From contig JBLYYQ010000011.1 of assembly GCA_048550035.1 (NCBI GenBank), forward strand, positions 1 through 42,459: a DNA stretch of 42,459 nucleotides, read 5' to 3'. The notes below the pieces were generated by a model. The model saw only the letters and a list, made by a program, of their open reading frames with translations. It ran no database searches and had not been told where the DNA came from. Shown here piece by piece: positions 25,506 to 37,844 of the stretch. Each line of letters begins with the position of its first letter. The first letter of the stretch is position 1. A program made the position numbers and the translations under genes. Source of the stretch: Nitrospinota bacterium. GTDB taxonomy: Bacteria; Nitrospinota_A; UBA7883; JBLYYQ01.

Positions 25506-26603
25506 ATGGAATTTAGAATTAATCGGAATGATTTTTTTAAAGGACTACAGCGGGTACAGTCGATCTCTACAACAAGAGGAACGATGCCAATACTAGCAAA
25601 TATCTTAATTAAGGCATCGGGCGAGAAAGTTTCTATTTTTGCAACAAACTTAGAGATCGGATTGAAAGGTGAGTATGAAGCTCAAGTTGTAGAAGAAGGT
25701 GCTATTACTGTTTCTGCTAAAAAAGTGCACGATATTGTAAGAGAGCTTCCAACTGGAGAGATACTAGTTAAAGAGAGTGATGGTAGGTTAAGATTGTCGT
25801 ATGGCAATTCTCGCTTTAATCTTGCAACATTGCCATCCGCAGACTACCCATCGTTTTTAGATTTCAAAGAATCCAATTTTATTAAACTAAAATCGAAACT
25901 GTTAGCCGATATGATTCGGAAGACTAGCTATGCAATAAGCAAAGATGAGACAAGAAGGACTTTGACAGGAGCATTGCTAGAAATCGATCCTAAAAGTACA
26001 AAGATGGTTGCAACAGATGGACATAGGCTAGGGTTAGTAGAGAGAGCTGGTTCATTTAAAGTAACTGATAATATTAAAATAATTGTTGCCCGTAAAGCGA
26101 TAGAGGAGCTATCTAAATTAATTTTAGAATCAGATGGTGATATTGAATTCTTAGCACATGACAACTATATAATTTTTAAAATTGAGAACCAATATATGAG
26201 TGCCAAACTGATTGAAGGAGCATTTCCTAACTATGATCAGGTTATTCCAAAAGAGCATACTGCAGAGGTCAATATATCAAAAGAGGCATTTTATTACACA
26301 TTAAGGCGTGTTTCTACATTAGCAGACGAAAAATCTCATATGGTCAAGCTGACTTTCCATAATGACAAACTCTCATTTATGAGTGAAGGGGGAGGCATTG
26401 GCGAAGCAAGAGATGAGCTTGAGATCAAATATTCAGGTGAGAGAATAGAGATAGGGTTAAACTCGAACTATCTTTTAGATCTACTCAATGCTATTGATGG
26501 CGACGAAGTAAAAATTAAGATTTCCGACCTTCTAGGTCCACTACTGATAGAATCAGAATCAGACGAAAAATCTATAGGTATTATTATGCCGATGCGTCTC
26601 TAA
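25506..26603 (+). CDS. dnaN: DNA polymerase III beta sliding clamp
   Basis: MEFRINRNDFFKGLQRVQSISTTRGTMPILANILIKA...ATDGHRL...EGAFPNYDQVIP...IIMPMRL is end-to-end DnaN-like over 365 aa. Confidence 0.96.
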   Translation: MEFRINRNDFFKGLQRVQSISTTRGTMPILANILIKASGEKVSIFATNLEIGLKGEYEAQVVEEGAITVSAKKVHDIVRELPTGEILVKESDGRLRLSYGNSRFNLATLPSADYPSFLDFKESNFIKLKSKLLADMIRKTSYAISKDETRRTLTGALLEIDPKSTKMVATDGHRLGLVERAGSFKVTDNIKIIVARKAIEELSKLILESDGDIEFLAHDNYIIFKIENQYMSAKLIEGAFPNYDQVIPKEHTAEVNISKEAFYYTLRRVSTLADEKSHMVKLTFHNDKLSFMSEGGGIGEARDELEIKYSGERIEIGLNSNYLLDLLNAIDGDEVKIKISDLLGPLLIESESDEKSIGIIMPMRL

Positions 26604-26840
26604 CGTAAACAACGACTTACGAATCAAACTATAATAATTCTAGTTACTCTATCTAATCTCGATTTAATGCAAAGCTGAGCTATTGATTTCTAATCACTAA
26701 TAGTTCATTTTTGCAACGTTAAGTAAGTGTAGTCATAATAATTACCTCTATCTATTCTCTTAAAAAAATAAAAAGAAAATTTTGTAAAAAAGTCAATTTT
26801 TTTTGCAACTAGACCTATATTAACACTGTCTCCATCCCCA

Positions 26841-27362
26841 TTGAAGTTGTGTGTGGAAGTGAAGTTATTAAAGAGAAAATCAAGTGAGAAGCAAACTAGA
26901 AGTAAGTTAGCAGCCAGTATAAGTCGCAGTTCAGACAAGTCTGGTTTTACATTAATTGAAGCGCTATTTTCGATGGTAGTGTTATCTATTGGAATGATGG
27001 GAGCAATGTCATTACAGGCAAGTTCACTATCAGGAGCTAGGTATACAACTGGGTTAGGAAACTGTACGAATATGGCAAGTAATACATTAGATCGGGTCAT
27101 AGCAAATCAAGAGATGATAGCTGAGTATGACGGTCTGGAGATCAAAGAAGCTGGAGGCAATAGTGGATCTAGCGATCCTGTAGTAGATTTGGATATTGAT
27201 AGTATAGCAGCGGAAATGACTGTAAATGGTTTTGGAGGAGGTATTGTCGCAATTAATACTACGAGTAATACGCCATCTTCAGAACTAACTACAGTTGACA
27301 TAACGATTACATGGAAACATAAGGGTTCAGATCGGACATGTACAGGTCAAGCAATAATATAA
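26841..27362 (+). CDS. pilV: Type IV pilus minor pilin, PilV-like (prepilin-type N-terminal cleavage/methylation motif)
   Basis: KSG|FTLIEALFSMVVLSIGMMGAM is a class III signal motif followed by a hydrophobic helix. The small size fits, and a PilW-like gene follows. The start codon is ambiguous (TTG 26841, GTG 26853 or GTG 26859; no ATG, no clear SD). Confidence 0.72.
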   Translation: MKLCVEVKLLKRKSSEKQTRSKLAASISRSSDKSGFTLIEALFSMVVLSIGMMGAMSLQASSLSGARYTTGLGNCTNMASNTLDRVIANQEMIAEYDGLEIKEAGGNSGSSDPVVDLDIDSIAAEMTVNGFGGGIVAINTTSNTPSSELTTVDITITWKHKGSDRTCTGQAII

Positions 27363-28453
27363 TTCGAGTGGGTAGTGGTGGTTTTACTCTACTAGAGCTC
27401 CTAGTTACGATAGTGATTGGTGCGATTATTTTAGGAGGAGTCGCAGCAGTCTTTACCAGCAATCGTGATGCGCAGACACTGTTCAAGCGGATGCAAGAGA
27501 CCGAGGAGAATAATCGTATTGCAATAAACTTTATGTCAAGAGATATTAGGATGAGTGAAACTGCACCAATCCTAGCATTAGATAACCTTAGAGCGGGGGG
27601 TGCATACAGTAGTGCAGTAAGTAGTTTATCGGCCAAAGACGGGACCGATATTGTCAGACTATTTGTGCCTCAGCTAGCAGAAGGTCAATCAATAATTCAG
27701 CCAGGCAGCCGTAGTTCTAGTTCTTGTGAAAGCGAGTATGCACATAATGCAACTGCGCTAGTTGGCTATGTAAATCTTCCTGCTGCAAAATTCCAAGGAG
27801 TCCAGAATCTGAGCAGTGCAAACTTAGACCTGCTCACGGATAGTCAGGTTCATTTTTATATTTGCGAGAATCCCACTTTAAACTGTATTTTAAATATCAG
27901 TGAAGTCAGCTTAGCAGGGACTGGCAACTGCTTAGTTCGTATTGGAGTGGACCGAACAGCTACAGCAGATGTTGCAAATCAGAATATAGACTGTAGTCAG
28001 TTAAATACCGAGTTTGATGCCGGAGCAGCTGTATGCGCATCAGTGGGTAAAAGCTATTATTATTATATTCGTGAAGGTGAAAAAGGACTAACGGATGCTT
28101 ACTCATCACAACTTGTAAGAGCTAGTGGTGGGAATGTTGAGGTAATTGCCAATAACCTAGCTGATATGCAATTTAGCTATGGAATTGATAACGATGGGGA
28201 CGATAGAGTAGATATCTGGTCGAATGTTCATGCAGATGCAAGCGATAGCGATCTTGAAGGAGGATCAGTTGATATTCAGATGATAAATGTTCAGCTATTG
28301 CTAGAGAGTAAAGCAGGTGCTAGAGCAGGAGATGTAGCGAAGGTTTCTCCAGTGCTCGCAAATTCAAGCGCAGACTTAGGTAGCCCAGCAGAGACAAAGG
28401 GAAAGTATTACCGGACAATTTCTCGTTCCGTAAAAATTCGTAATCCAAATTAA
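27338..28453 (+). CDS. pilW: Type IV pilus minor pilin, PilW-like
   Basis: GSGG|FTLLELLVTIVIGAIILGGVAAVF followed by NNRIAINFMSRDIRMSE, a PilW-type block, over 371 aa. An alternative GTG start at 27368 would give a 5-aa leader and remove the overlap with pilV. Confidence 0.72.
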   Translation: MYRSSNNIIRVGSGGFTLLELLVTIVIGAIILGGVAAVFTSNRDAQTLFKRMQETEENNRIAINFMSRDIRMSETAPILALDNLRAGGAYSSAVSSLSAKDGTDIVRLFVPQLAEGQSIIQPGSRSSSSCESEYAHNATALVGYVNLPAAKFQGVQNLSSANLDLLTDSQVHFYICENPTLNCILNISEVSLAGTGNCLVRIGVDRTATADVANQNIDCSQLNTEFDAGAAVCASVGKSYYYYIREGEKGLTDAYSSQLVRASGGNVEVIANNLADMQFSYGIDNDGDDRVDIWSNVHADASDSDLEGGSVDIQMINVQLLLESKAGARAGDVAKVSPVLANSSADLGSPAETKGKYYRTISRSVKIRNPN

Positions 28454-28470
28454 AAACAAGAGGGACAAGA

Positions 28471-29172
28471 ATGTTGCTAATAGGAGTTAAAAATAAAAAA
28501 GGGGTAATTTTATTTATCAGTTTAGGAGTAATAGCAATCATAAGTATGTTTGCACTCTTATCGTCAACAGGGCTCCTATCTGAACAGAAAATGGCAGGTA
28601 ATACGAAGCGTTATGTAGAGGTTTTTTATAATGCAGAATCTGGGTTAAAACATGTTGCTAAGGAATTAGGGGAAAAGTATGGAGAGTTTAATTCAAGAGG
28701 AACAAGCGGTAGCTGGTCATTTGCCTTAGATGGTTCCACATTTACAGAGGTATCAAGTAGTGTTTATTGCGAAGGGTGCTTAGATGGTAGTGCTAGTTTA
28801 GCTTCTGGTGATTGGCTAGATAATGGAGTTGAAGTGTTAAGCGAAAGTACAACAAAAAATAATGTTACTTACACATATACTGTACACATTTGGGACAATG
28901 ATGAAAGCAGTGAGACAGGAATAGGATGTCCGGATCTTGACCCTAGCTTTGATTGTGACGGCCTTATAATCGCTAGGTCAGAGTCGGTGGCGCAGATTAA
29001 TTCAGAAGTGATAGCAAGATCAGTACAAGAAACGACACTATTGGGGCAGGTTTCAGGATTGAGCATTATTAATACCACACCACAAGCAGGCGGCGGAGGA
29101 GGCAAAGGGAGTGAATCAAGTGATGTTGCAGATATCAGCACAGTATCAGGTAGTGGCGTAGTCATTAACTAA
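28471..29172 (+). CDS. pilX: PilX-like minor pilin / pilus assembly protein
   Basis: KKGVILFISLGVIAIISMFALLSSTGLLSEQKMAGN...FYNAESGL resembles the PilX N-terminal domain: a hydrophobic helix without the Glu5 motif, then the conserved AExG block. It lies between the pilW-like and pilY1-like genes. Confidence 0.6.
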   Translation: MLLIGVKNKKGVILFISLGVIAIISMFALLSSTGLLSEQKMAGNTKRYVEVFYNAESGLKHVAKELGEKYGEFNSRGTSGSWSFALDGSTFTEVSSSVYCEGCLDGSASLASGDWLDNGVEVLSESTTKNNVTYTYTVHIWDNDESSETGIGCPDLDPSFDCDGLIIARSESVAQINSEVIARSVQETTLLGQVSGLSIINTTPQAGGGGGKGSESSDVADISTVSGSGVVIN

Positions 29173-29187
29173 GGTGAAATATTATTT

Positions 29188-32100
29188 ATGAATATATTAA
29201 AATTGTATCGATCAACACTTTCCATAACATTTAGTCTAGTTGCAATCTTAATAATTAGTGGATCTGTTTATAGTACAGAGATGGCATATGGTGCAGATAC
29301 GGATGGTGCCACTGGTTGCGTGGTGGGTGGTTCTTATATAAGTAGCAGTGGTGGCTTTGTATCGTCTGATATTGATCTAAACACAGCGGAAATAGACTCT
29401 AGTTCCGGTAGCATAAAATTGGCAACAGGCGCAGCAGCAGTTGACTTGCAAGAGCTTGTACTACCATTTCGTCAAGCTGTAAATATGTATTTTATCTATG
29501 AAGGTGCCTCTCAGGCTGGAGCGCTTGGCTGGTATCTAGTAAATTTAGCAGAGATCTGTATGAAAGGTGCCTTTGGGTCGAGTTATGAGTTACCAACAGA
29601 AGCTAATCCTGGGACGGGAATTACATTTAGAGAATTTTATTTAGCTCACCAGTGGTGTATGAATGAGCCGACAATTGCCCAACCATTGATTAACTGGGTC
29701 TTCCCTGCGATCGATGATTATGGGGGTGAAGGAGGTGTCTTTGATGGTCAGATTTCTAATACAATATGGAGTTATGATCCAGACGAAGTGCCAAACAATC
29801 CATTGGGTAGATCAATAAATTTTCACGAGATATCACATAGGGAAGCATCAACTGAAGAAGAGTATGCTGCAATGGGAATGAATGTAAACAATGACGGGAT
29901 ACTAAACATCTTAGATTCAATGGTAAAGCTTCCAGAGTTTGAAGCAGGGACTGAGATTGGATTTTTGTACTCATTAGCAGTAAAAGATAAGTATACCTTT
30001 TTTTCAAAGCCGTTTTGGGATCATCCTAGCTCTGCAACATTTCGAAGTGCAGCTATTCTTGAATGCCCGGCAGCAGATGTGCCAAGTCTATCATGTAAAA
30101 TGAAAGATGTATTAAAGAATCGCAGCTGTGCTTCAGGTAACCCTAGTGAGAGTGTGAAGATAAATTTTAATTTAGAATGGGAACCACTTGAAGATATGAC
30201 ATCAAACAAATGTTCTAGGTTGAAGTGGTTGTACAATGATGCAGATAGTTGGGATATAAATGATCCAAACAGGCATGATAATATCCCGCTATTTACCCAA
30301 GGACTAATAACAGATAGTGCTAGAGATAGATTAACAGATTTCTATTCATTAGATTTTACAGGTTTATCGACCGAGGCAATCCTCCAAAAAGATACTCGAT
30401 ATAATCATTTTATAAGTGTTGCGCCACCGGCAGACAAGTTTCGATGGATTATTGGCTTAGAGAATCAGCCAGAGGGTGGAGATGCTGATTTTAATGATGC
30501 AATATTTTTGATCGAAAAGATAAGTGGAGGTGCTGTAGAGTTAAAAGAAGAGAGTCGAATCTCACCTTCTGATCCTGATGCATATATAACTGCAGTAAAA
30601 TTATCAGTAAGTGATACCATGCCGTGCGATGGCAAGACAAAAATCGAATATATGCTTTCTATCAATAATGGTCTCGATTGGGTTACAATTGGTAAAAATG
30701 ATTGGAATGTAGTAAAAAATTCTAGTGGCAATATAGTAGACGATTGGGAATATGGATTTCCATCTAAAACAACAAGAGAAGTAACAATAAACTTTTTAGA
30801 GAATGGTCTGGTTGGCCGTGAGTTACGCTGGAAATCTCTACTGAGTTCTCGTGACGATTTATGTCAGCCGGAAATTGGATATATAGACTTAGGTTATAGT
30901 GCAGCCAAGAATAGTGAGTTTTCTCGTTCATCAGTGACATTGCTAAGTAATGTATCATACTCGGCTACCTTTGAGACCCCTGCAGTAGACTGGATTGATC
31001 GTGATCTTAGAGGGCACCTATATTCAGAAGAACTATATAAACCAGAAAATGCACGTGCAGATACTGGCTATGATGTTAGTCAGAATTGGGACGCAGCTGT
31101 TTCGTTAAATAGTCAAGGTCCGTCAGTCCGTAAGATAATCACACCTAAGTTAAATGTTTTTGAATATAGGGATATATTAGCAAGAGGAGATGGAACAGGT
31201 ACCTCATTTACAAATCTTCAATTAACAAAAGATCCGATAGTTCATTCTTCATTAGTTATTACAGATGGTGTTGAAACTTTCTATGATAGTGGAACCTATG
31301 CGTTAACAGGGTCTTTAGGTGGAGAGGGAAGATTCAATCGTTATACAGGTGAGATTGATCAGATTACATTTCAAACAGCTCCATCTGCGAATGTTGAAAT
31401 TGTAGCAATCTATTCATACTATACATCGTCTTCAGATATGTTGAATATAGATAGTACAGATATCAATAATGAAACATTAGGGATAACAGATCAGATAATT
31501 TTTAATTCAGAAGGTAGACACTTTGTTCATGATTACAATAATGATAATGCGATAACAGAAGCGGATAGCAACTGGGTTAAGAACTGGATTCGTGGATATA
31601 GGAATGGGTCAGAGCGGAATCAATCAAAGGAATGGTTACTAGCAGCAGTTGATCACTCTACCCCAGCACTTGTAGGGGCACCTGCGATTCATTCTTGGTA
31701 TTACGGCAGTAGCGTAGAGAGTCAGATAAGAGATTCATTTGATCTATTCATGTGCCAGCAACGTAACCGTGAAACCAAAGTCTATGTAGGTTCAAAAATT
31801 GGGATGATTCATTCGTTTAACGCAGGCAAGTTTAGACCATTTCATGTCAATGAATCATTACTTCCTCACTCAAATCAATGTTCAAACTTAGGATTATTTA
31901 AGAATTCAATTAACGCAGTAGTTAAAGCCGATCCGCTAACAAATGATAACTATCCTGTTTATAGTCCAGAGCCTGGAGTCGATATTTATATTAATCGTGG
32001 CTATTATGAATGGACAGGTGGAGAACCTGACTATGGTGATGGTAAGGAGAGTTGGGCAATTATTCCAAACGATCAACTCCCAAAATTAAAGAATCATCTC

Positions 32101-33222
32101 AGTCATGAATCTGACAAATCGTTTGTCGATGCGTCAGTCTCTGTTGCATATGTCCAGTTCAAAGATAAGAGCTGGCATGCAGTATTAATAACTGCAGAAG
32201 GCAATGGTGGTGATACAGTTTTAGCTATAGATATTACCGACCCTGACGATCCAAAATTTTTATGGGAATATGGTGATCCGGAGCTATTTAAATCACGCTC
32301 ATCGCCATCAATGGGTACAGTGGGACGCATATCTGCAGGCGATAGTACAGGTAGATGGGTAGTCTTTTTTGTCTCTGGTGTTAGCTTAGGGGCAGATATT
32401 TACCCTTCAATCTATACACTTGATATTGAAACTGGTGAATTAGTAAAGAAAATTTATCTAGATGGTGAGTCGAACGGAAAAGGTGGAACACCCTCAGGTC
32501 AGCCTGTAATAATAGATTCAGATGGTAACGGTTATGTTGATAAACTATTTGTAGGGAGTGATAAAGGTTATATCTACAAGGTGATCTTACCGGACAATCC
32601 TAATAGGGTGGGTGCAATTGAGTCATGTTCTCAAGCATTTTATAATGCAGGACAACCAATATATGCGACTCCAACTGTTGTAGTCCGTGATCATAATAGA
32701 GGAGGCAATGTAATTACCACTCCGATTGTGCTTTTTGGTACTTCAGACAGTCCGTATCATGAAGATTCATTAGGGAACAGTGAGAATTATAAAATTTTAT
32801 CAGTGGCAGGTCATGAATCAACAAGCTCCTGTGAAGCTGGCGAGCTTTTGTGGGAAGAGGAGCTAGAGGATGGACATAAGGTCTTTGCCTCTGCATTTGC
32901 ATCGGCTAGCAAAATTTACTTTGGGACAACTGTCAGAGAGACAGAAGATCCTTGTTCTTCTAGCAATGCAGCAGCTGGTGAAAGTGGTGATATCTTAATC
33001 ATTGATATTGTTAACGGTCCGTCAGGGGCTGATGGCTATAAGGAAGTAATCAATAATGTCGGGGATATAGTTTCTGCACCAACAGTTGAGGATGAACATC
33101 TTTATGTAAAAAATATTAAAGGTGAGCTTACAGGTTATGGTGGTAGCAATTTTCAAAATAGCACCCAGTCAGGTGGCAGTATAGTTGCGATACCTGGCAC
33201 ATGGCGCGAGATAAATAAATAG
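29188..33222 (+). CDS. pilY1: PilY1/PilC-family tip adhesin, paralog A (1344 aa): signal peptide, DUF4114-like N-module, Cys-stapled middle module, C-terminal PilY1 beta-propeller
   Basis: PilY1 C-domain blocks: RGHLYSEELY, VDHSTPALVGAP, VYVGSKIGMIHSFNAGKF, ESWAIIPNDQLPKLKN, WHAVLITAEGNGGDTVLAIDITDPDDPKFLWEY, and the Ca-loop DSDGNGYVD followed by KLFVGSDKGYIYKV. The N-module ends in GGDADFNDAIF. Confidence 0.85.
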   Translation: MNILKLYRSTLSITFSLVAILIISGSVYSTEMAYGADTDGATGCVVGGSYISSSGGFVSSDIDLNTAEIDSSSGSIKLATGAAAVDLQELVLPFRQAVNMYFIYEGASQAGALGWYLVNLAEICMKGAFGSSYELPTEANPGTGITFREFYLAHQWCMNEPTIAQPLINWVFPAIDDYGGEGGVFDGQISNTIWSYDPDEVPNNPLGRSINFHEISHREASTEEEYAAMGMNVNNDGILNILDSMVKLPEFEAGTEIGFLYSLAVKDKYTFFSKPFWDHPSSATFRSAAILECPAADVPSLSCKMKDVLKNRSCASGNPSESVKINFNLEWEPLEDMTSNKCSRLKWLYNDADSWDINDPNRHDNIPLFTQGLITDSARDRLTDFYSLDFTGLSTEAILQKDTRYNHFISVAPPADKFRWIIGLENQPEGGDADFNDAIFLIEKISGGAVELKEESRISPSDPDAYITAVKLSVSDTMPCDGKTKIEYMLSINNGLDWVTIGKNDWNVVKNSSGNIVDDWEYGFPSKTTREVTINFLENGLVGRELRWKSLLSSRDDLCQPEIGYIDLGYSAAKNSEFSRSSVTLLSNVSYSATFETPAVDWIDRDLRGHLYSEELYKPENARADTGYDVSQNWDAAVSLNSQGPSVRKIITPKLNVFEYRDILARGDGTGTSFTNLQLTKDPIVHSSLVITDGVETFYDSGTYALTGSLGGEGRFNRYTGEIDQITFQTAPSANVEIVAIYSYYTSSSDMLNIDSTDINNETLGITDQIIFNSEGRHFVHDYNNDNAITEADSNWVKNWIRGYRNGSERNQSKEWLLAAVDHSTPALVGAPAIHSWYYGSSVESQIRDSFDLFMCQQRNRETKVYVGSKIGMIHSFNAGKFRPFHVNESLLPHSNQCSNLGLFKNSINAVVKADPLTNDNYPVYSPEPGVDIYINRGYYEWTGGEPDYGDGKESWAIIPNDQLPKLKNHLSHESDKSFVDASVSVAYVQFKDKSWHAVLITAEGNGGDTVLAIDITDPDDPKFLWEYGDPELFKSRSSPSMGTVGRISAGDSTGRWVVFFVSGVSLGADIYPSIYTLDIETGELVKKIYLDGESNGKGGTPSGQPVIIDSDGNGYVDKLFVGSDKGYIYKVILPDNPNRVGAIESCSQAFYNAGQPIYATPTVVVRDHNRGGNVITTPIVLFGTSDSPYHEDSLGNSENYKILSVAGHESTSSCEAGELLWEEELEDGHKVFASAFASASKIYFGTTVRETEDPCSSSNAAAGESGDILIIDIVNGPSGADGYKEVINNVGDIVSAPTVEDEHLYVKNIKGELTGYGGSNFQNSTQSGGSIVAIPGTWREINK

Positions 33223-33245
33223 TGCAAATTTTTGGAGGTAGTTTT

Positions 33246-36200
33246 ATGATTTCAAACAGAATAAGGGGTAGCTATTTACAATTAGTGCCAATATTAGCTT
33301 TGAGTTTATTACTATTAACAGATTGGCGAACAGATTCGAATGCAGCAAGTCTGGGTCAATTAGCAGGTTGCGCAGAAGGCGGCTCTTATTCTACAGGCAG
33401 TGAAGGCTTTGATCTAGAAGATTATGATCTCGCTAGCATTGCAGTAAGCGATTCAGGCAAACTTGTGTTGGAGACCGGTTTAGATGCTATTGATGCGAGT
33501 AATATAATATTCCCATTCAGGCAATCTGCTAGTATAAGTTTTATTTCAGAAGGCGCTGGTGCAATAGGAGCATTAGGATGGCTCAATGTCGGAATGGCCG
33601 ATCAATGTATGAAAGGCCGATTTGGTTCTAGCTATACTTTACCTTCTGCTACTAATCAAACGGGAATATCATTTAGGGATCTATATCTTGCACATCAATG
33701 GTGCTTAAGTGAGCCAACAATCGCACAACCGTTAATCAACTGGATATTCCCATATATCGATGACGAGGATAGCAATGGTATTATTGATAAACAATATACT
33801 GTTAATAATTGGCAATACAACCCAGGGGGAACTCAACCGTCAGCAGGTCGTCAAATAACATTTAGCCGAAATAATAACAGAGAGGCTACAACAGAAACTT
33901 CTTATGCAAATAATGCGAATATGGATCCAAATTTCGATGGCAATTTAGATATTCTAGACTCTCGAGTAATATTACCGGAGTTCCAAGCAGGGACTGAGGT
34001 AGTATTTTTCTATGCACTAAAGAGAAAAGATAAACATCTCTATTTTTCTAAAGACTATTGGGACCTTATAGACAGTTCCACCCTTACAGGTGGTGGCACA
34101 ACTGTCTGTCCCTCAGATGATGCCCCAAGTATATCTTGTTCGTTACGTAAGATATTGGAGGATGACAGAAGTGGTTCCTCACCTTGTAATCCTAATCCAA
34201 GTCAAAGCGTATATTATAACTTTGATCTTGCAGTATCAGCACTTGAGAGGACAACAAGTTCTGCCTGCACCCTTATTAGTTGGAATTATAATAATGCAGA
34301 TCAGTGGGATTCAAGTTCGAGCTTAAGAGATCAATATATACCTCAATTCACTTACGGTCTTATAGATAATGGGTCGCGTCAAAATCTACTAAATTTTCAT
34401 GGGATATCTTTCACAGGAACTACTTCCCAAAAAAAGTTTACTTACAATAATAGGTTTAATCATTATGTAAGCGTTGCTCCACCAGCAGATCAGTATAGAT
34501 GGTTGCTTGGGCTTGAAGATTTACCTGGAGGTGGCGATTTTGATTTTAATGATGTTGTTTTTATGATTGAAAAAAAGACAGGTGGTACTGTAAACCTAAA
34601 ATCAACTAAAGCACTTACTCCTGATGAAGAAGATGCCTTTATTATTTCAGCGACAATTAAGGTTGCAGATACTATGCCATGCTCTGGGGAGACAGTGATT
34701 GATTATTTTGTCTCAGTAGACAATGGTGGAAATTGGGTAAAGATTAATCGAGATGATTGGGCAACAATTGAAACACCGTCGTCTCGTGAAGTGACAGATT
34801 GGGACTACGGTTCACCAGAAAAGACTGTTCGAGAGGTGACTCTAAACTTTATAGATCTAGGAATAGGAGGTCAAGAGCTAGTATGGAAAGCAGACCTACT
34901 TTCTCAGGACCAAGAGTGTATCCCGACCATTGATGAACTGGATATTGATTTTGAAGCGGCAAAAAGTCATGAGTTTTCTAGATCATCGCCAACAGTGTTA
35001 GCCAATGTAGTCTATACGACATCATATGAGACACCAAATGTCGCTTGGGATGAATTTACCACACGAGGACACCTCTATTCAACTGAGCTATATTCACCAG
35101 AAAATGCAAGAGAAGAAGATTCTAGCACTAATGTTCAAAACTGGGATGCCGGACTCTTATTAAACTCTACAGCGTTAACTCAACGAAAAGTATTAACTCC
35201 AGATATTAATGTTAAAGCGTTTACTGAAGTGCTAGGTAGAGGAAGGGATGCTACAGATGGATTGTTTAACTTTACACTCTCTAAAAAGCCTATTGTTTTT
35301 GGAAGTGTCACTATTACTGATGGTCGCGAGATATTTACCGATTCAAGAACAAGTGACCTAGTTGGCAACTTAGGTGGAACTGGCAAAATAGATCGTCATA
35401 CTGGTGCCATTACAGAGTTAAGCTTTAACAGCACTGTTGCTAACAACAGGAAAATTCGTGCCACCTATTCTTACTACAAGACTAGCCCAGATATGGTAAA
35501 CCTAAGTAGTAGCGATATCAATAATAAGAAGCTAGGGATTGATGATAGTTCAATTATAACTTCTAGGGGGAGAATGTTTCTGGATGATTATAATAATGAT
35601 AACCAGATTACCGAAGATGATGCTAGCTGGGTAAAGAAGTGGATAACAGGTTATAAGAATGGCATAGATAGTAGGAAGGAATGGATTTTACCTTCCATTG
35701 ACCATTCGACTCCAGCAGTGGTTGGAGCTCCTGCTATTCATAGCTGGTATTATGGTTTTGATGTCTCATCTGATGTACGGAGTAGTTATGATACTTTTAT
35801 GTGCGAGCAGCGTGAGCGGGCAACAAGGGTCTATGCAGGCTCAAAGATAGGAATGATTCACTCTTTTGAAGCTGGTAAGTTTAGAGCTTATCATATCGAT
35901 GAATCAATGCTTCCTAGAAGCAATAAATGTTCTAATAATAATACTTATAAAAAAGCTATTAATACAAAGGTAGCTTTGGATCCTATAAGTAATGATCTTT
36001 ATCCAGTCTACAAACCCAATAATAGTGATACGGTTTTTATTAATCGTGGTTATTATGAATGGACAGATGGAAACCCAGATTATGGGACAGGTAAAGAGTC
36101 TTGGGCTGTAGTTCCTAACGATTTACTTCCACGCTTAAAAAATCATATTAATGGAAGTGAAGATTTTTCAGAAGTTGATGCATCACCATCTGTAGTTTTT

Positions 36201-37265
36201 GCACAGTTCAAGGACGATAGTTGGCATGCAGTCTTGATGACCGCAGAAGGTAGCGGTGGTGATACAATAGTAGCGCTAGATATAACCTCGCCAGATGATC
36301 CAAAGTTTCTATGGGAGTTTGGTCATCCAGAACTATTCAGATCACGCTCATCACCTTCAGTAAGCGCGATCGGTCAGATCTACTCATCAACAGGTCCTGT
36401 TTGGGTATCGTTTTTTGTTTCAGGTCAGAACAAGGTGGCAACAGATCCAGCATCAATATTTGCAATTGAACTGGAAACGGGTAGACTAATCGAAAAGATT
36501 GTACTTTATACAAGCAGGGACGGACTAGGTGGTACACCCTCAGGTCAGCCAGCCTTAATTGATTCAGATGGGAATGGTTATGCAGATAAGATGTTTATCG
36601 GAACCGATAAAGGTTATATATATAAGATTCTTCTGCCTGACGAGCCTGATTCAAGTTCAAATTTCCAGGTCTGCGATTCTGCCTTTTTTCAGGCAGGTCA
36701 ACCGATTCATGCCTCACCTTCGGTAGCAATCAGGAGTCGATCAGTCGGTGGTTCTATGGCAATGACACCGGTTGTATTAATAGGGACATCTGATAGTCCA
36801 TATCACATTGATGAAGATGTTAATACTGTCACAAAATATAAGTTTTTTTCCATCGGTGGATCAGCAAATAAAACCTCATGCAGGCGCGGAGAAAAGCTTT
36901 GGGAAAAAGAGCTAGATGCAGGTCATAAAGTATATGGATCAGCATACATTTCTGCAGATCGAGTCTATTTTGGAACAAGCGTAGGTGATACTGATGACCC
37001 ATGTTCCACTTCAGGATATGTAGCGACAGGTACTCTTGGCAATCTCTATGTATTAGATATTATTTCTGGGCCAGACGAACATGAAGAGGTCATCGAGAAT
37101 GTAGGGAACATTGTCTCATCACCAATTGTAGAGGATCAACATCTTTATATAAGAACAAAAGAAGGAGAGCTAAAAAGTTATGGTGATGGACCTTATCAAA
37201 ATAGCTCTCAAGTTAGTCAGAATAGTATCACTGTGAAAACAAAATGGCGCGAAATTGCTAATTGA
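33246..37265 (+). CDS. pilY1: PilY1/PilC-family tip adhesin, paralog B (~1339 aa), same architecture as paralog A
   Basis: Collinear with paralog A over its whole length, for example PTIAQPLINW, GGDFDFNDVVF, IDHSTPAVVGAP, VYAGSKIGMIHSFEAGKF, WHAVLMTAEGSGGDTIVALDITSPDDPKFLWEF and DSDGNGYAD. The ATG at 33246 (GGAGG at 33234-33238) is preferred over the GTG at 33222 in the track. Confidence 0.85.
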   Translation: MISNRIRGSYLQLVPILALSLLLLTDWRTDSNAASLGQLAGCAEGGSYSTGSEGFDLEDYDLASIAVSDSGKLVLETGLDAIDASNIIFPFRQSASISFISEGAGAIGALGWLNVGMADQCMKGRFGSSYTLPSATNQTGISFRDLYLAHQWCLSEPTIAQPLINWIFPYIDDEDSNGIIDKQYTVNNWQYNPGGTQPSAGRQITFSRNNNREATTETSYANNANMDPNFDGNLDILDSRVILPEFQAGTEVVFFYALKRKDKHLYFSKDYWDLIDSSTLTGGGTTVCPSDDAPSISCSLRKILEDDRSGSSPCNPNPSQSVYYNFDLAVSALERTTSSACTLISWNYNNADQWDSSSSLRDQYIPQFTYGLIDNGSRQNLLNFHGISFTGTTSQKKFTYNNRFNHYVSVAPPADQYRWLLGLEDLPGGGDFDFNDVVFMIEKKTGGTVNLKSTKALTPDEEDAFIISATIKVADTMPCSGETVIDYFVSVDNGGNWVKINRDDWATIETPSSREVTDWDYGSPEKTVREVTLNFIDLGIGGQELVWKADLLSQDQECIPTIDELDIDFEAAKSHEFSRSSPTVLANVVYTTSYETPNVAWDEFTTRGHLYSTELYSPENAREEDSSTNVQNWDAGLLLNSTALTQRKVLTPDINVKAFTEVLGRGRDATDGLFNFTLSKKPIVFGSVTITDGREIFTDSRTSDLVGNLGGTGKIDRHTGAITELSFNSTVANNRKIRATYSYYKTSPDMVNLSSSDINNKKLGIDDSSIITSRGRMFLDDYNNDNQITEDDASWVKKWITGYKNGIDSRKEWILPSIDHSTPAVVGAPAIHSWYYGFDVSSDVRSSYDTFMCEQRERATRVYAGSKIGMIHSFEAGKFRAYHIDESMLPRSNKCSNNNTYKKAINTKVALDPISNDLYPVYKPNNSDTVFINRGYYEWTDGNPDYGTGKESWAVVPNDLLPRLKNHINGSEDFSEVDASPSVVFAQFKDDSWHAVLMTAEGSGGDTIVALDITSPDDPKFLWEFGHPELFRSRSSPSVSAIGQIYSSTGPVWVSFFVSGQNKVATDPASIFAIELETGRLIEKIVLYTSRDGLGGTPSGQPALIDSDGNGYADKMFIGTDKGYIYKILLPDEPDSSSNFQVCDSAFFQAGQPIHASPSVAIRSRSVGGSMAMTPVVLIGTSDSPYHIDEDVNTVTKYKFFSIGGSANKTSCRRGEKLWEKELDAGHKVYGSAYISADRVYFGTSVGDTDDPCSTSGYVATGTLGNLYVLDIISGPDEHEEVIENVGNIVSSPIVEDQHLYIRTKEGELKSYGDGPYQNSSQVSQNSITVKTKWREIAN

Positions 37266-37274
37266 TAATTTAAT

Positions 37275-37844
37275 ATGAAAACTATGCAAGTTAGAGTTGC
37301 TAATGATGGTGGGTTTACGCTCATAGAACTATTAGTTGCGATTGGAATAATCACAATTCTCACTGGGATTGCAATATTTTCATCCGGTCAATTTTTAACT
37401 AAACTATCTGCCACAGGTGCTAGCAATAGTATTGCTCAGATTATTATGTTTGCAAAGTCTGAAGCTACCAAGCAAGGCAAACAGGTGATAGTTACTATTG
37501 ACAAGAGTAATAATGTCTTTGATGTATCAGATAGCGATTCAAATAATCTAATAACAGCAGATGTTGATGCTAACTATAAGAATATTGAAATTGAGTCAAT
37601 CGAAGATTGTGATAGTAGTGATATTTCTACCATCACCCTTAGTTCATCAGGTTCTGTTATTGCGGTTGGTAACAGTGGTGGATCTCTTAGTGATGGTGCG
37701 ATGCCAGTTGTTATATCGGTTAAACATAAGTCAGCGACTAGTACTGAACCGAGCAAGCTTGTCACAATATATAGATCAGGAATAACTAAGGTCTACAGCT
37801 CTGATAAATTCAAACATAAAGGTGAGAATTCAGCATGCGAATAA
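37275..37844 (+). CDS. GspH/FimT/FimU-family type IV pseudopilin
   Basis: NDGG|FTLIELLVAIGIITILTGIAIFS prepilin motif, then SNSIAQIIMFAKSEATKQGKQVIVTI, which resembles the GspH-domain block (xxARxEAixxxxxV). Length is 189 aa. Confidence 0.7.
   Translation: MKTMQVRVANDGGFTLIELLVAIGIITILTGIAIFSSGQFLTKLSATGASNSIAQIIMFAKSEATKQGKQVIVTIDKSNNVFDVSDSDSNNLITADVDANYKNIEIESIEDCDSSDISTITLSSSGSVIAVGNSGGSLSDGAMPVVISVKHKSATSTEPSKLVTIYRSGITKVYSSDKFKHKGENSACE

Follow-up and report, generated by a model that had tools for sequence, protein, structure and literature searches.

Two adjacent genes for PilY1-type proteins, here named paralog A (1344 amino acids (aa), positions 29188..33222, plus strand) and paralog B (1339 aa, 33246..37265, plus strand), lie in contig JBLYYQ010000011.1 of assembly GCA_048550035.1, the 42,459-nucleotide (nt) stretch that we call the window. 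We propose that A and B are tandem paralogs of the PilY1 class that carries a DUF4114 domain as its head, with a head predicted to bind carbohydrate in a Ca2+-dependent manner, and we assign to this reading as a whole a probability of about 0.6. Membership of the two proteins in the DUF4114-PilY1 class is very likely, and the lectin mechanism of the head is narrowly probable. An earlier inspection of the letters of the window, here called the original prediction, had described both proteins as PilY1-like adhesins with a DUF4114-like N-terminal module where Pseudomonas PilY1 has a domain of the von Willebrand factor A (vWA) type, and had taken this module to be a different, uncharacterised head. 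The PilY1-type identity of the pair in a minor-pilin operon was confirmed. Both proteins match the PilY1 propeller family PF05567 above its cut-off of 28.1 bits (A 61.9 bits, E 6.8e-17; B 55.8 bits, E 5e-15), A matches the structure of the C-terminal domain of P. aeruginosa PilY1 (3hx6, E 5.4e-18), and the pair is flanked by N_methyl, PilW, PilX_N and GspH-like genes, so that the context of a minor-pilin cluster is present. The order of regions in A is a signal peptide, the DUF4114-type head, a middle β domain, a neck and the PilY1 β-propeller, while B carries PF05567 and DUF4114 matches.

The head module of A covers aa 43-452 (29314..30543, plus strand), from an invariant GC to IEKISGG, and encloses the narrower span 29464-30529 described before; that of B covers 33366..34598 (plus strand), from GC to IEKKTGG. 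All of the motifs on which the original prediction was based were found where it had placed them, in the translations of 29188-33222 and 33222-37265. In A, PFRQ starts at aa 93 (nt 29464), QWC at aa 155 and DFND at aa 434, with DADFND at nt 30481-30498; in B, the same motifs start at aa 98, 159 and 441, with DFDFND at nt 34536-34553. As A and B are paralogs, motifs common to the two are expected and therefore bring no independent signal. In family alignments of 15-24 distant homologues, the invariant positions are GC, the Q of PFxQ, F, EGA, G..W, E..F and E....GGD.D.ND. The acidic loop and β-strand characteristic of DUF4114 (E...GGDxD[FY]ND) read GLENQPEGGDADFNDAIFLIEK in A and GLEDLPGGGDFDFNDVVFMIEK in B. 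The putative Ca2+/sugar loop of A, G-L-E425-N-Q-P-E-G-G-D432-A-D434-F-N436-D437, is encoded at 30454..30498 (plus strand), and the putative Ca loop of B, GLEDLPGGGDFDFND, at 34509-34553 (plus strand). The Ca site is intact in both paralogs, with D432, D434, N436 and D437 in A and the corresponding residues in B.

We compared both heads with the Pfam model of DUF4114 (PF13448), which has 85 columns and a gathering cut-off of 27 bits. B scored 29.0-30.9 bits, above the cut-off, so that the domain call stands for B, while A remained below it with 19.1-19.9 bits (E 0.0027; match at aa 403-442). What the model covers is the AGTE..FFSK strand together with the tail of the module, as in the metagenomic protein P0003, 36% identical, where the match covers aa 239-370. 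The PFRQ...GALGW strand, which had been proposed as the start of the Pfam domain, was rejected in this role because the scores of chimeras joining head and tail hardly moved (A from 19.9 to 23.9 bits, B from 30.9 to 31.8, P0003 from 40.5 to 35.4). This strand falls outside the 85-column model, but it is part of one conserved compact module. Joining the AGTE..FFSK strand region to the tail lifted the score of A, 19.9 bits before, to 26.1 and that of B, 30.9 before, to 34.2, over profile positions 30-83 and starting from the YTFFSK stretch; in other words, A reaches 26.1 DUF4114 bits once the residues inserted between FFSK and YNHF are deleted. The Pfam model spans part of a module of ~270 aa, and members like A therefore fall below the threshold. 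A survey from 2026, which distinguishes DUF4114 clades 1.1 and 1.2, likewise describes the domain as often escaping stringent thresholds and as embedded in a larger β-rich unit (Front Microbiol, PMC13190605). The view of the N-terminal module as DUF4114-type with large insertions was supported. A search of the proteins against NCBIfam gave nothing beyond the Pfam results.

The architecture itself has been described. In M. xanthus, PilY1.1 and PilY1.2 have DUF4114 at the N-terminus, the place taken by vWA in PilY1.3 and in PilY1 of P. aeruginosa (Xue et al. 2022, PMC9109919). A DUF4114-PilY1 protein is also present in Desulfonema (PMC13190605), and the class is therefore not confined to Myxococcota. 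We aligned A by BLASTP with an open reading frame (ORF) of M. xanthus AM003 (L008:4612-8859, 1416 aa), which carries DUF4114 at 38 bits and PF05567, and found three collinear blocks: the head (A aa 57-119 versus 45-110, E 5e-4), the tail and middle domain (407-652 versus 464-762, 29% identity, E 9e-27) and the propeller (757-1330 versus 777-1397, E 1e-32). A and B resemble M. xanthus PilY1.1 and PilY1.2 in the order of their parts, in which a signal peptide and the head strand are followed by a DUF4114 tail bearing the GGDxDFND Ca loop, the middle β domain, the neck and the propeller, and in having genes that adjoin minor pilins of the pilX, pilW, pilV and fimU/T types. These DUF4114-type PilY1 proteins of M. 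xanthus have also been reported on elsewhere (Treuner-Lange 2020). The intact Ca-site aspartates make A and B PilY1.1-like and not PilY1.2-like, following the criterion of PMC9109919. A and B differ from the Myxococcus proteins in several respects: identity is just 25-29%, a short N-terminal stretch of the head aligns weakly (the E 5e-4 block) and alignment otherwise runs from the tail onward, the window clade has insertions of its own (the QWC...PLINW helices and Cys-rich loops) and 14 cysteines compared with a reported median of 22-23, the copies stand in tandem in one operon and not in separate clusters, and the host belongs to a low-GC (38%) uncultured lineage whose closest named relatives are Nitrospinota metagenome-assembled genomes (MAGs). 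Compared with P. aeruginosa PilY1 (3hx6), the C-terminal β-propeller, the EF-hand-like Ca loop and the minor-pilin operon are shared, whereas the N-terminal vWA domain with its metal-ion-dependent adhesion site is absent and a DUF4114-type module stands in its place.

An exhaustive hidden Markov model search with a profile of the A and B heads, against 1.84 billion representatives and with clusters at 50% identity, matched 120 clusters at E<=1e-3, of which 70 remain at E<=1e-10 and 8 at E<=1e-30. A typical match consists of three stretches, corresponding to the head, the middle strand and the tail. The long relatives (matches of >=1100 aa) were searched by local phmmer with pieces of A, and 61 of the 64 carry an A-type propeller and 58 of the 64 the middle domain; the matches lacking a propeller are mostly short gene fragments. 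In practice the head is therefore a PilY1 head. Public names of the relatives include "DUF4114 domain-containing protein" (Myxococcus spp. and a Deltaproteobacteria MAG), "PilC/PilY family type IV pilus protein" (a Nitrospinota MAG) and "type IV pilus assembly protein PilY1". When GTDB species genomes were scanned with a 5-sequence alignment (A3) as query, at least 29 loci were found, in Myxococcus (M. xanthus among them), Corallococcus, Cystobacter and Archangium and in a MAG each of Thermodesulfobacteriota and Desulfuromonadales. The DUF4114-headed PilY1 class, hitherto studied in Myxococcus only and noted in one Desulfonema protein, would thus extend to a low-GC uncultured lineage near Nitrospinota MAGs. 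Our results do not overturn the current understanding of this class; what they add are the clade-specific insertions and the tandem duplication.

In some relatives (P0011, P0013, P0018, P0021, P0022 and the ORF L003 5194-9327) the head is not N-terminal, and hundreds to ~1650 residues precede it. The preceding domains include PF18998 (InlB B-repeat-like) in a Thermodesulfobacteriota ORF, and P0011 reaches 2799 aa. Additional modules can thus be present at the tip.

To the family alignments we added structure prediction. An AlphaFold2 model of the A head, built on a 15-sequence alignment, formed a single compact unit (predicted local distance difference test (pLDDT) 74.7, predicted template modelling score (pTM) 0.79), with pLDDT values of 89-97 in the strands of the core and in insertion 1. 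The insertions of A probably mask the core, and for this reason a minimal family member (P0015-type), which aligns with A and B, was modelled on a 24-sequence alignment (pLDDT 85.5, pTM 0.82). The predicted fold is rich in β-strands and contains few helices. In Foldseek comparisons the minimal head matched DUF4114 proteins of giant viruses over 228-329 columns (E 1.6e-6 to 7e-5, probability 1.0), with Orpheovirus, Yasminevirus, Hokovirus and Dasosvirus proteins as its best neighbours in the viral library. As these matches run over 228-329 columns, the whole ~270-aa unit would be a DUF4114-type fold. Homology, modelling and alignment together identify the N-terminal ~410 aa of the paralogs as one predicted β-rich module of DUF4114 type. 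The Acanthamoeba and giant-virus DUF4114 proteins belong to the same domain family as the PilY1 heads; they differ in that the Acanthamoeba protein is a membrane-anchored eukaryotic adhesin and that neither it nor the viral proteins have a PilY1 propeller. We note that the viral matches fit published suggestions of a horizontal movement of DUF4114 among bacteria, amoebae and their viruses.

Two lines of comparison point to Ca2+-dependent lectins. In the PDB, the top matches of the minimal head were BclA/BC2L-A (2vnv, 2wr9; E 4e-3 to 6e-2, probability 0.75-0.98, template modelling (TM) score ~0.5, TMt 0.52), and LecB/PA-IIL (1our/1gzt) was matched with TMt 0.60-0.62. When a 44-column profile of the tail was compared with all PDB sequences it aligned with LecB, placing gGGDaDfNDlvflie on LecB 96-110, DGTDNDYNDAVVVIN (E 1.2). 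The D-x-D-[FY]-N-D loop falls residue for residue on LecB, with D99, D101, N103 and D104 of the lectin on four family-invariant residues of A, D432, D434, N436 and D437. The four LecB residues are among the Ca2+ ligands of its sugar-binding loop, which holds two Ca2+ and also includes E95, and lectins of this family fold as nine-stranded β-sandwiches. An equivalent of LecB E95 in A would require a loop 3 residues longer. The lectins are oligomers of ~114 aa that complete the site with the C-terminus of a neighbour, unlike the PilY1 head of 270-410 aa inside a 1344-aa protein; the LecB site is completed by Asn21 and the C-terminal carboxylate of the neighbouring subunit. The same lectins are thus the best PDB folds and the carriers of the calcium loop on which the GGDxDxND loop falls (LecB/BclA), which provides, at the level of sequence, a basis for the Ca2+-dependent binding of sugar that we propose. 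The Acanthamoeba DUF4114 domain, whose β-sandwich is similar to a protein of Myxococcus and weakly similar to the lectin BclA, binds mannose experimentally (PMC11934332). The fold and loop comparisons, weak but independent of each other, converge with two papers on a PA-IIL-like calcium loop.

Several results weigh against a DUF4114-type lectin head in A and B. The DUF4114 score of A is below the cut-off, and a Foldseek search of the A head model against the PDB returned nothing meaningful (best E 0.44). The minimal head had no PDB match at E<=1e-3 in Foldseek, and its superposition on BclA and LecB has an rmsd (root mean square deviation) of 8-10 Å. The tail match to LecB, at E=1.2, is non-significant alone, and the profile of the whole head matched no PDB sequence at E<=10. 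In the PilY1 heads we identified no equivalent of the LecB Asn21 or C-terminal carboxylate. PF07472 (PA-IIL) was absent from the Pfam lists at E<=10, though the HMMER filters drop most matches above ~0.1. Finally, sugar binding by the M. xanthus PilY1 head was deduced from genetics, not biochemistry.

Considering the weakness of the lectin similarity, the head could instead be a Ca2+-stabilised structural or mechanosensing module, functionally analogous to the vWA domain of P. aeruginosa PilY1, which transmits surface contact or tension or serves only folding, export or priming of the pilus. This is possible but on balance unlikely. It would agree with the Cys pairs conserved between A and B and the GC...C342 pair of the family, which suggest a rigid, disulfide-stapled scaffold, and with the deletion of the DUF4114 region in M. 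xanthus, which inactivates PilY1.1 altogether and leaves the double mutant without pili (PMC9109919), so that the head is needed beyond adhesion. However, the acidic loop is invariant in very distant members while neighbouring loops vary, as is usual for a site that binds a ligand or a metal, and a DUF4114 domain is known to bind mannose (PMC11934332). Moreover, the D498A substitution in the DUF4114 Ca site of PilY1.1 abolishes colony-level movement in cells that still make pili, and these extend and retract (PMC9109919), which points to attachment and not to assembly. A Ca-dependent binding of exopolysaccharide has been proposed for the M. xanthus head (PMC9109919).

The original prediction saw in the head a domain for sensing or ligand binding that is new, uncharacterised and outside the known PilY1 subclasses, a reading that has become very improbable. 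A word-indexed search with the head alone, or with a 15-sequence head profile, returned essentially nothing, which would suit a new domain but reflects a limitation of word indexing, as the 120 clusters of the profile search include named DUF4114 and PilY1 proteins; the missing PDB match of the A model and the sub-threshold DUF4114 score of A might be taken in the same sense. All that the word-indexed search found were the window's own protein, a near-identical copy of B in a different sample and P0003. Against novelty, the combination of DUF4114 and PilY1 is already published (PMC9109919, PMC13190605), relatives are annotated and A is collinear with the PilY1.1-like protein of M. xanthus, so that the exact architecture largely corresponds to an already annotated PilY1 subclass. 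Still less credible, to the point of being nearly negligible, is a divergent vWA or another well-characterised adhesin domain. The original prediction had seen no DxSxS motif of the vWA type in either paralog, but such strings are present at aa 981 of A and at aa 315, 363 and 986 of B; those in B at 315 and 363 and in A at 981 could speak for a vWA domain, but none stands in a vWA context and all are chance occurrences. The absence of a vWA domain held, since a Pfam search of both heads down to E<=10 gave neither VWA nor another well-characterised adhesin family and NCBIfam gave none, the fold is predicted as β-rich and not Rossmann-like α/β, and the Foldseek matches contained no vWA structures.

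In the proposed Ca2+-dependent carbohydrate-binding role of A and B, the propeller would dock on a stem of the minor pilins PilV, PilW, PilX and FimT, priming and capping the pilus, if the analogy to those PilY1 proteins that have been studied applies. The head would then be displayed distally at the end of the pilus and may bind a carbohydrate, for example exopolysaccharide or a surface glycan, through sugar hydroxyls coordinated by Ca2+ at the E....GGDxDxND loop. Attachment by the head would allow pilus retraction to produce movement or adhesion. With heads 48% identical and both Ca loops intact, the two paralogs may have alternative specificities, and tandem paralogs with diverged heads are a possible natural test of tip specificity.

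The heads of A and B, at about 410-414 aa, are longer than those of minimal family members (266-280 aa), and the excess of ~145 aa consists of insertions common to P0004 and, in part, to P0005 and P0007 (alignment A2). Insertion 1 of A (~aa 118-171, 29539..29700, plus strand; ICMKG...QWCMNEPTIAQPLINW) is clade-specific and contains a Cys124/Cys157 pair and two predicted helices, at model positions 80-91 and 109-121 with pLDDT 89-97; the second motif of the original prediction (QWC...EPTIAQPLINW) falls in it. Insertion 2 (aa ~285-330) is Cys-rich, and insertion 3 covers aa ~345-370. Cysteine positions are equivalent between A and B, and the N-terminal GC and Cys342 are kept across the family, from which we infer disulfides in the head. 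The insertions, with their two helices and Cys-rich loops, probably decorate the sandwich and shape the binding surface. A further idea, that they build a second or altered binding surface and that the tandem paralogs are interchangeable tips with ligand specificities, possibly non-carbohydrate, absent from the Myxococcus class, is doubtful and we offer it as speculation. The conserved N-terminal GC could also have marked a lipoprotein, a reading that was rejected because in A the Cys lies ~15 residues beyond the h-region of the signal peptide and because it is kept where the module is internal (for example at aa ~409 of P0013).

A and B are 52% identical across ~1308 aligned residues, over their whole length. 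Their identity (51.5%) exceeds that of either one to P0004 (46%), which is encoded by a single-copy gene in a locus that otherwise has the same synteny, pilVWX-pilY1-fimT-yggS-proC-yggT. Each of the closest relatives, P0004 and the Nitrospinota MAG, has one pilY1 in this synteny (L032 10001-14032 and L033 10001-13969). Since A and B are more similar to one another than to the single-copy syntenic P0004, these identities indicate that the duplication is lineage-specific and not recent. The order dnaN-pilV-pilW-pilX-pilY1-fimT (window 25506-29172) is common to Candidatus Nitrospinota bacterium M3_3B_026 (L033 5906-9980), and the DnaN proteins of the two are 53% identical. The shared synteny and the DnaN identity hint at a Nitrospinota affiliation and do not prove it. 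Cluster look-ups with ten housekeeping proteins of the window gave no close relatives that bear a name. The lineage, in which the function of type IV pili is unstudied, may be marine and related to Nitrospinota.

The genes around the pair complete the picture of the minor-pilin cluster. Upstream lie a PilV-like minor pilin gene (26841..27362, plus strand, TTG start; PF07963 N_methyl, E 2.5e-7), pilW (27338..28453, plus strand; PF16074 PilW and PF07963) and pilX (28471..29172, plus strand; PF14341 PilX_N). The PilV-like product is 30% identical to that of the equivalent gene in the Nitrospinota MAG locus. Because its N-methylation motif sits at aa 32-56, the true start of this gene is probably ~20-25 codons downstream of the listed TTG. 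Two antisense ORFs that overlap it (26705-27100 and 27307-27636) are small and probably spurious. The last gene of the cluster encodes a FimT/GspH-like minor pilin (37275..37844, plus strand; PF07963 and PF12019 GspH), which has counterparts at the equivalent position in loci L032 and L033, and is followed by yggS, proC and yggT. The operon layout of the window is repeated in the relatives L001, L032 and L033, and the gene of P0003 lies in a GspH-pilW-pilX-pilY1 operon. For paralog B, the mechanical ORF opens at GTG 33222 and overlaps the stop codon of A; this start is probably unused and ATG 33246 is the likely one, because a GGAGG lies 7 nt upstream of it and because the gene call of a near-identical contig (P0002) is 1339 aa long. 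The window is a chromosomal stretch of 38% GC. On the minus strand it contains a ribosomal S6/SSB-family pair, followed by nagZ and dnaN (a near-identical contig, L002, has S6-SSB-S18), and it also carries rplU, obg and a nuo operon.

Behind the head of A, a middle β-rich domain (~aa 455-600, 30550..30990, plus strand) carries the family-conserved Cys480 and Cys559, and the corresponding domain of B lies at 34599-35040. Its motif string, …AYITAVKLSVSDTMPC…WKSLLSS…C.PEI…FSRSS…ETP, is common to most of the class including the M. xanthus PilY1.1-like protein, and phmmer with this domain gave matches in 85 of 122 relatives; the domain had no Pfam match and no PDB sequence match. The β-propeller region of A covers ~aa 785-1344 (31540..33219, plus strand; PF05567), with the 3hx6 alignment starting at aa 783. 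It includes an EF-hand-like Ca site, D1110-S-D-G-N-G-Y-V-D1118 (32515..32541, plus strand); this loop (A 1110-1118, DSDGNGYVD) and that of B (1114-1122) align with DNNSDGVAD of 3hx6, a structure in which the Ca ligands are established.

Both proteins end in a W-R-E-[IV] motif (A …TWREINK, 33199-33219; B …KWREIAN, 37242-37262), and relatives have the same motif or a close variant (WREITL, WREVY, WRELF, WSEVF). This C-terminal motif may be a strand that pairs with the minor pilins. An RGD, a motif discussed as integrin-binding in P. aeruginosa PilY1, occurs at aa 666-668 of A (31183-31191); B has GRGRD at this place, and the RGD is probably due to chance.

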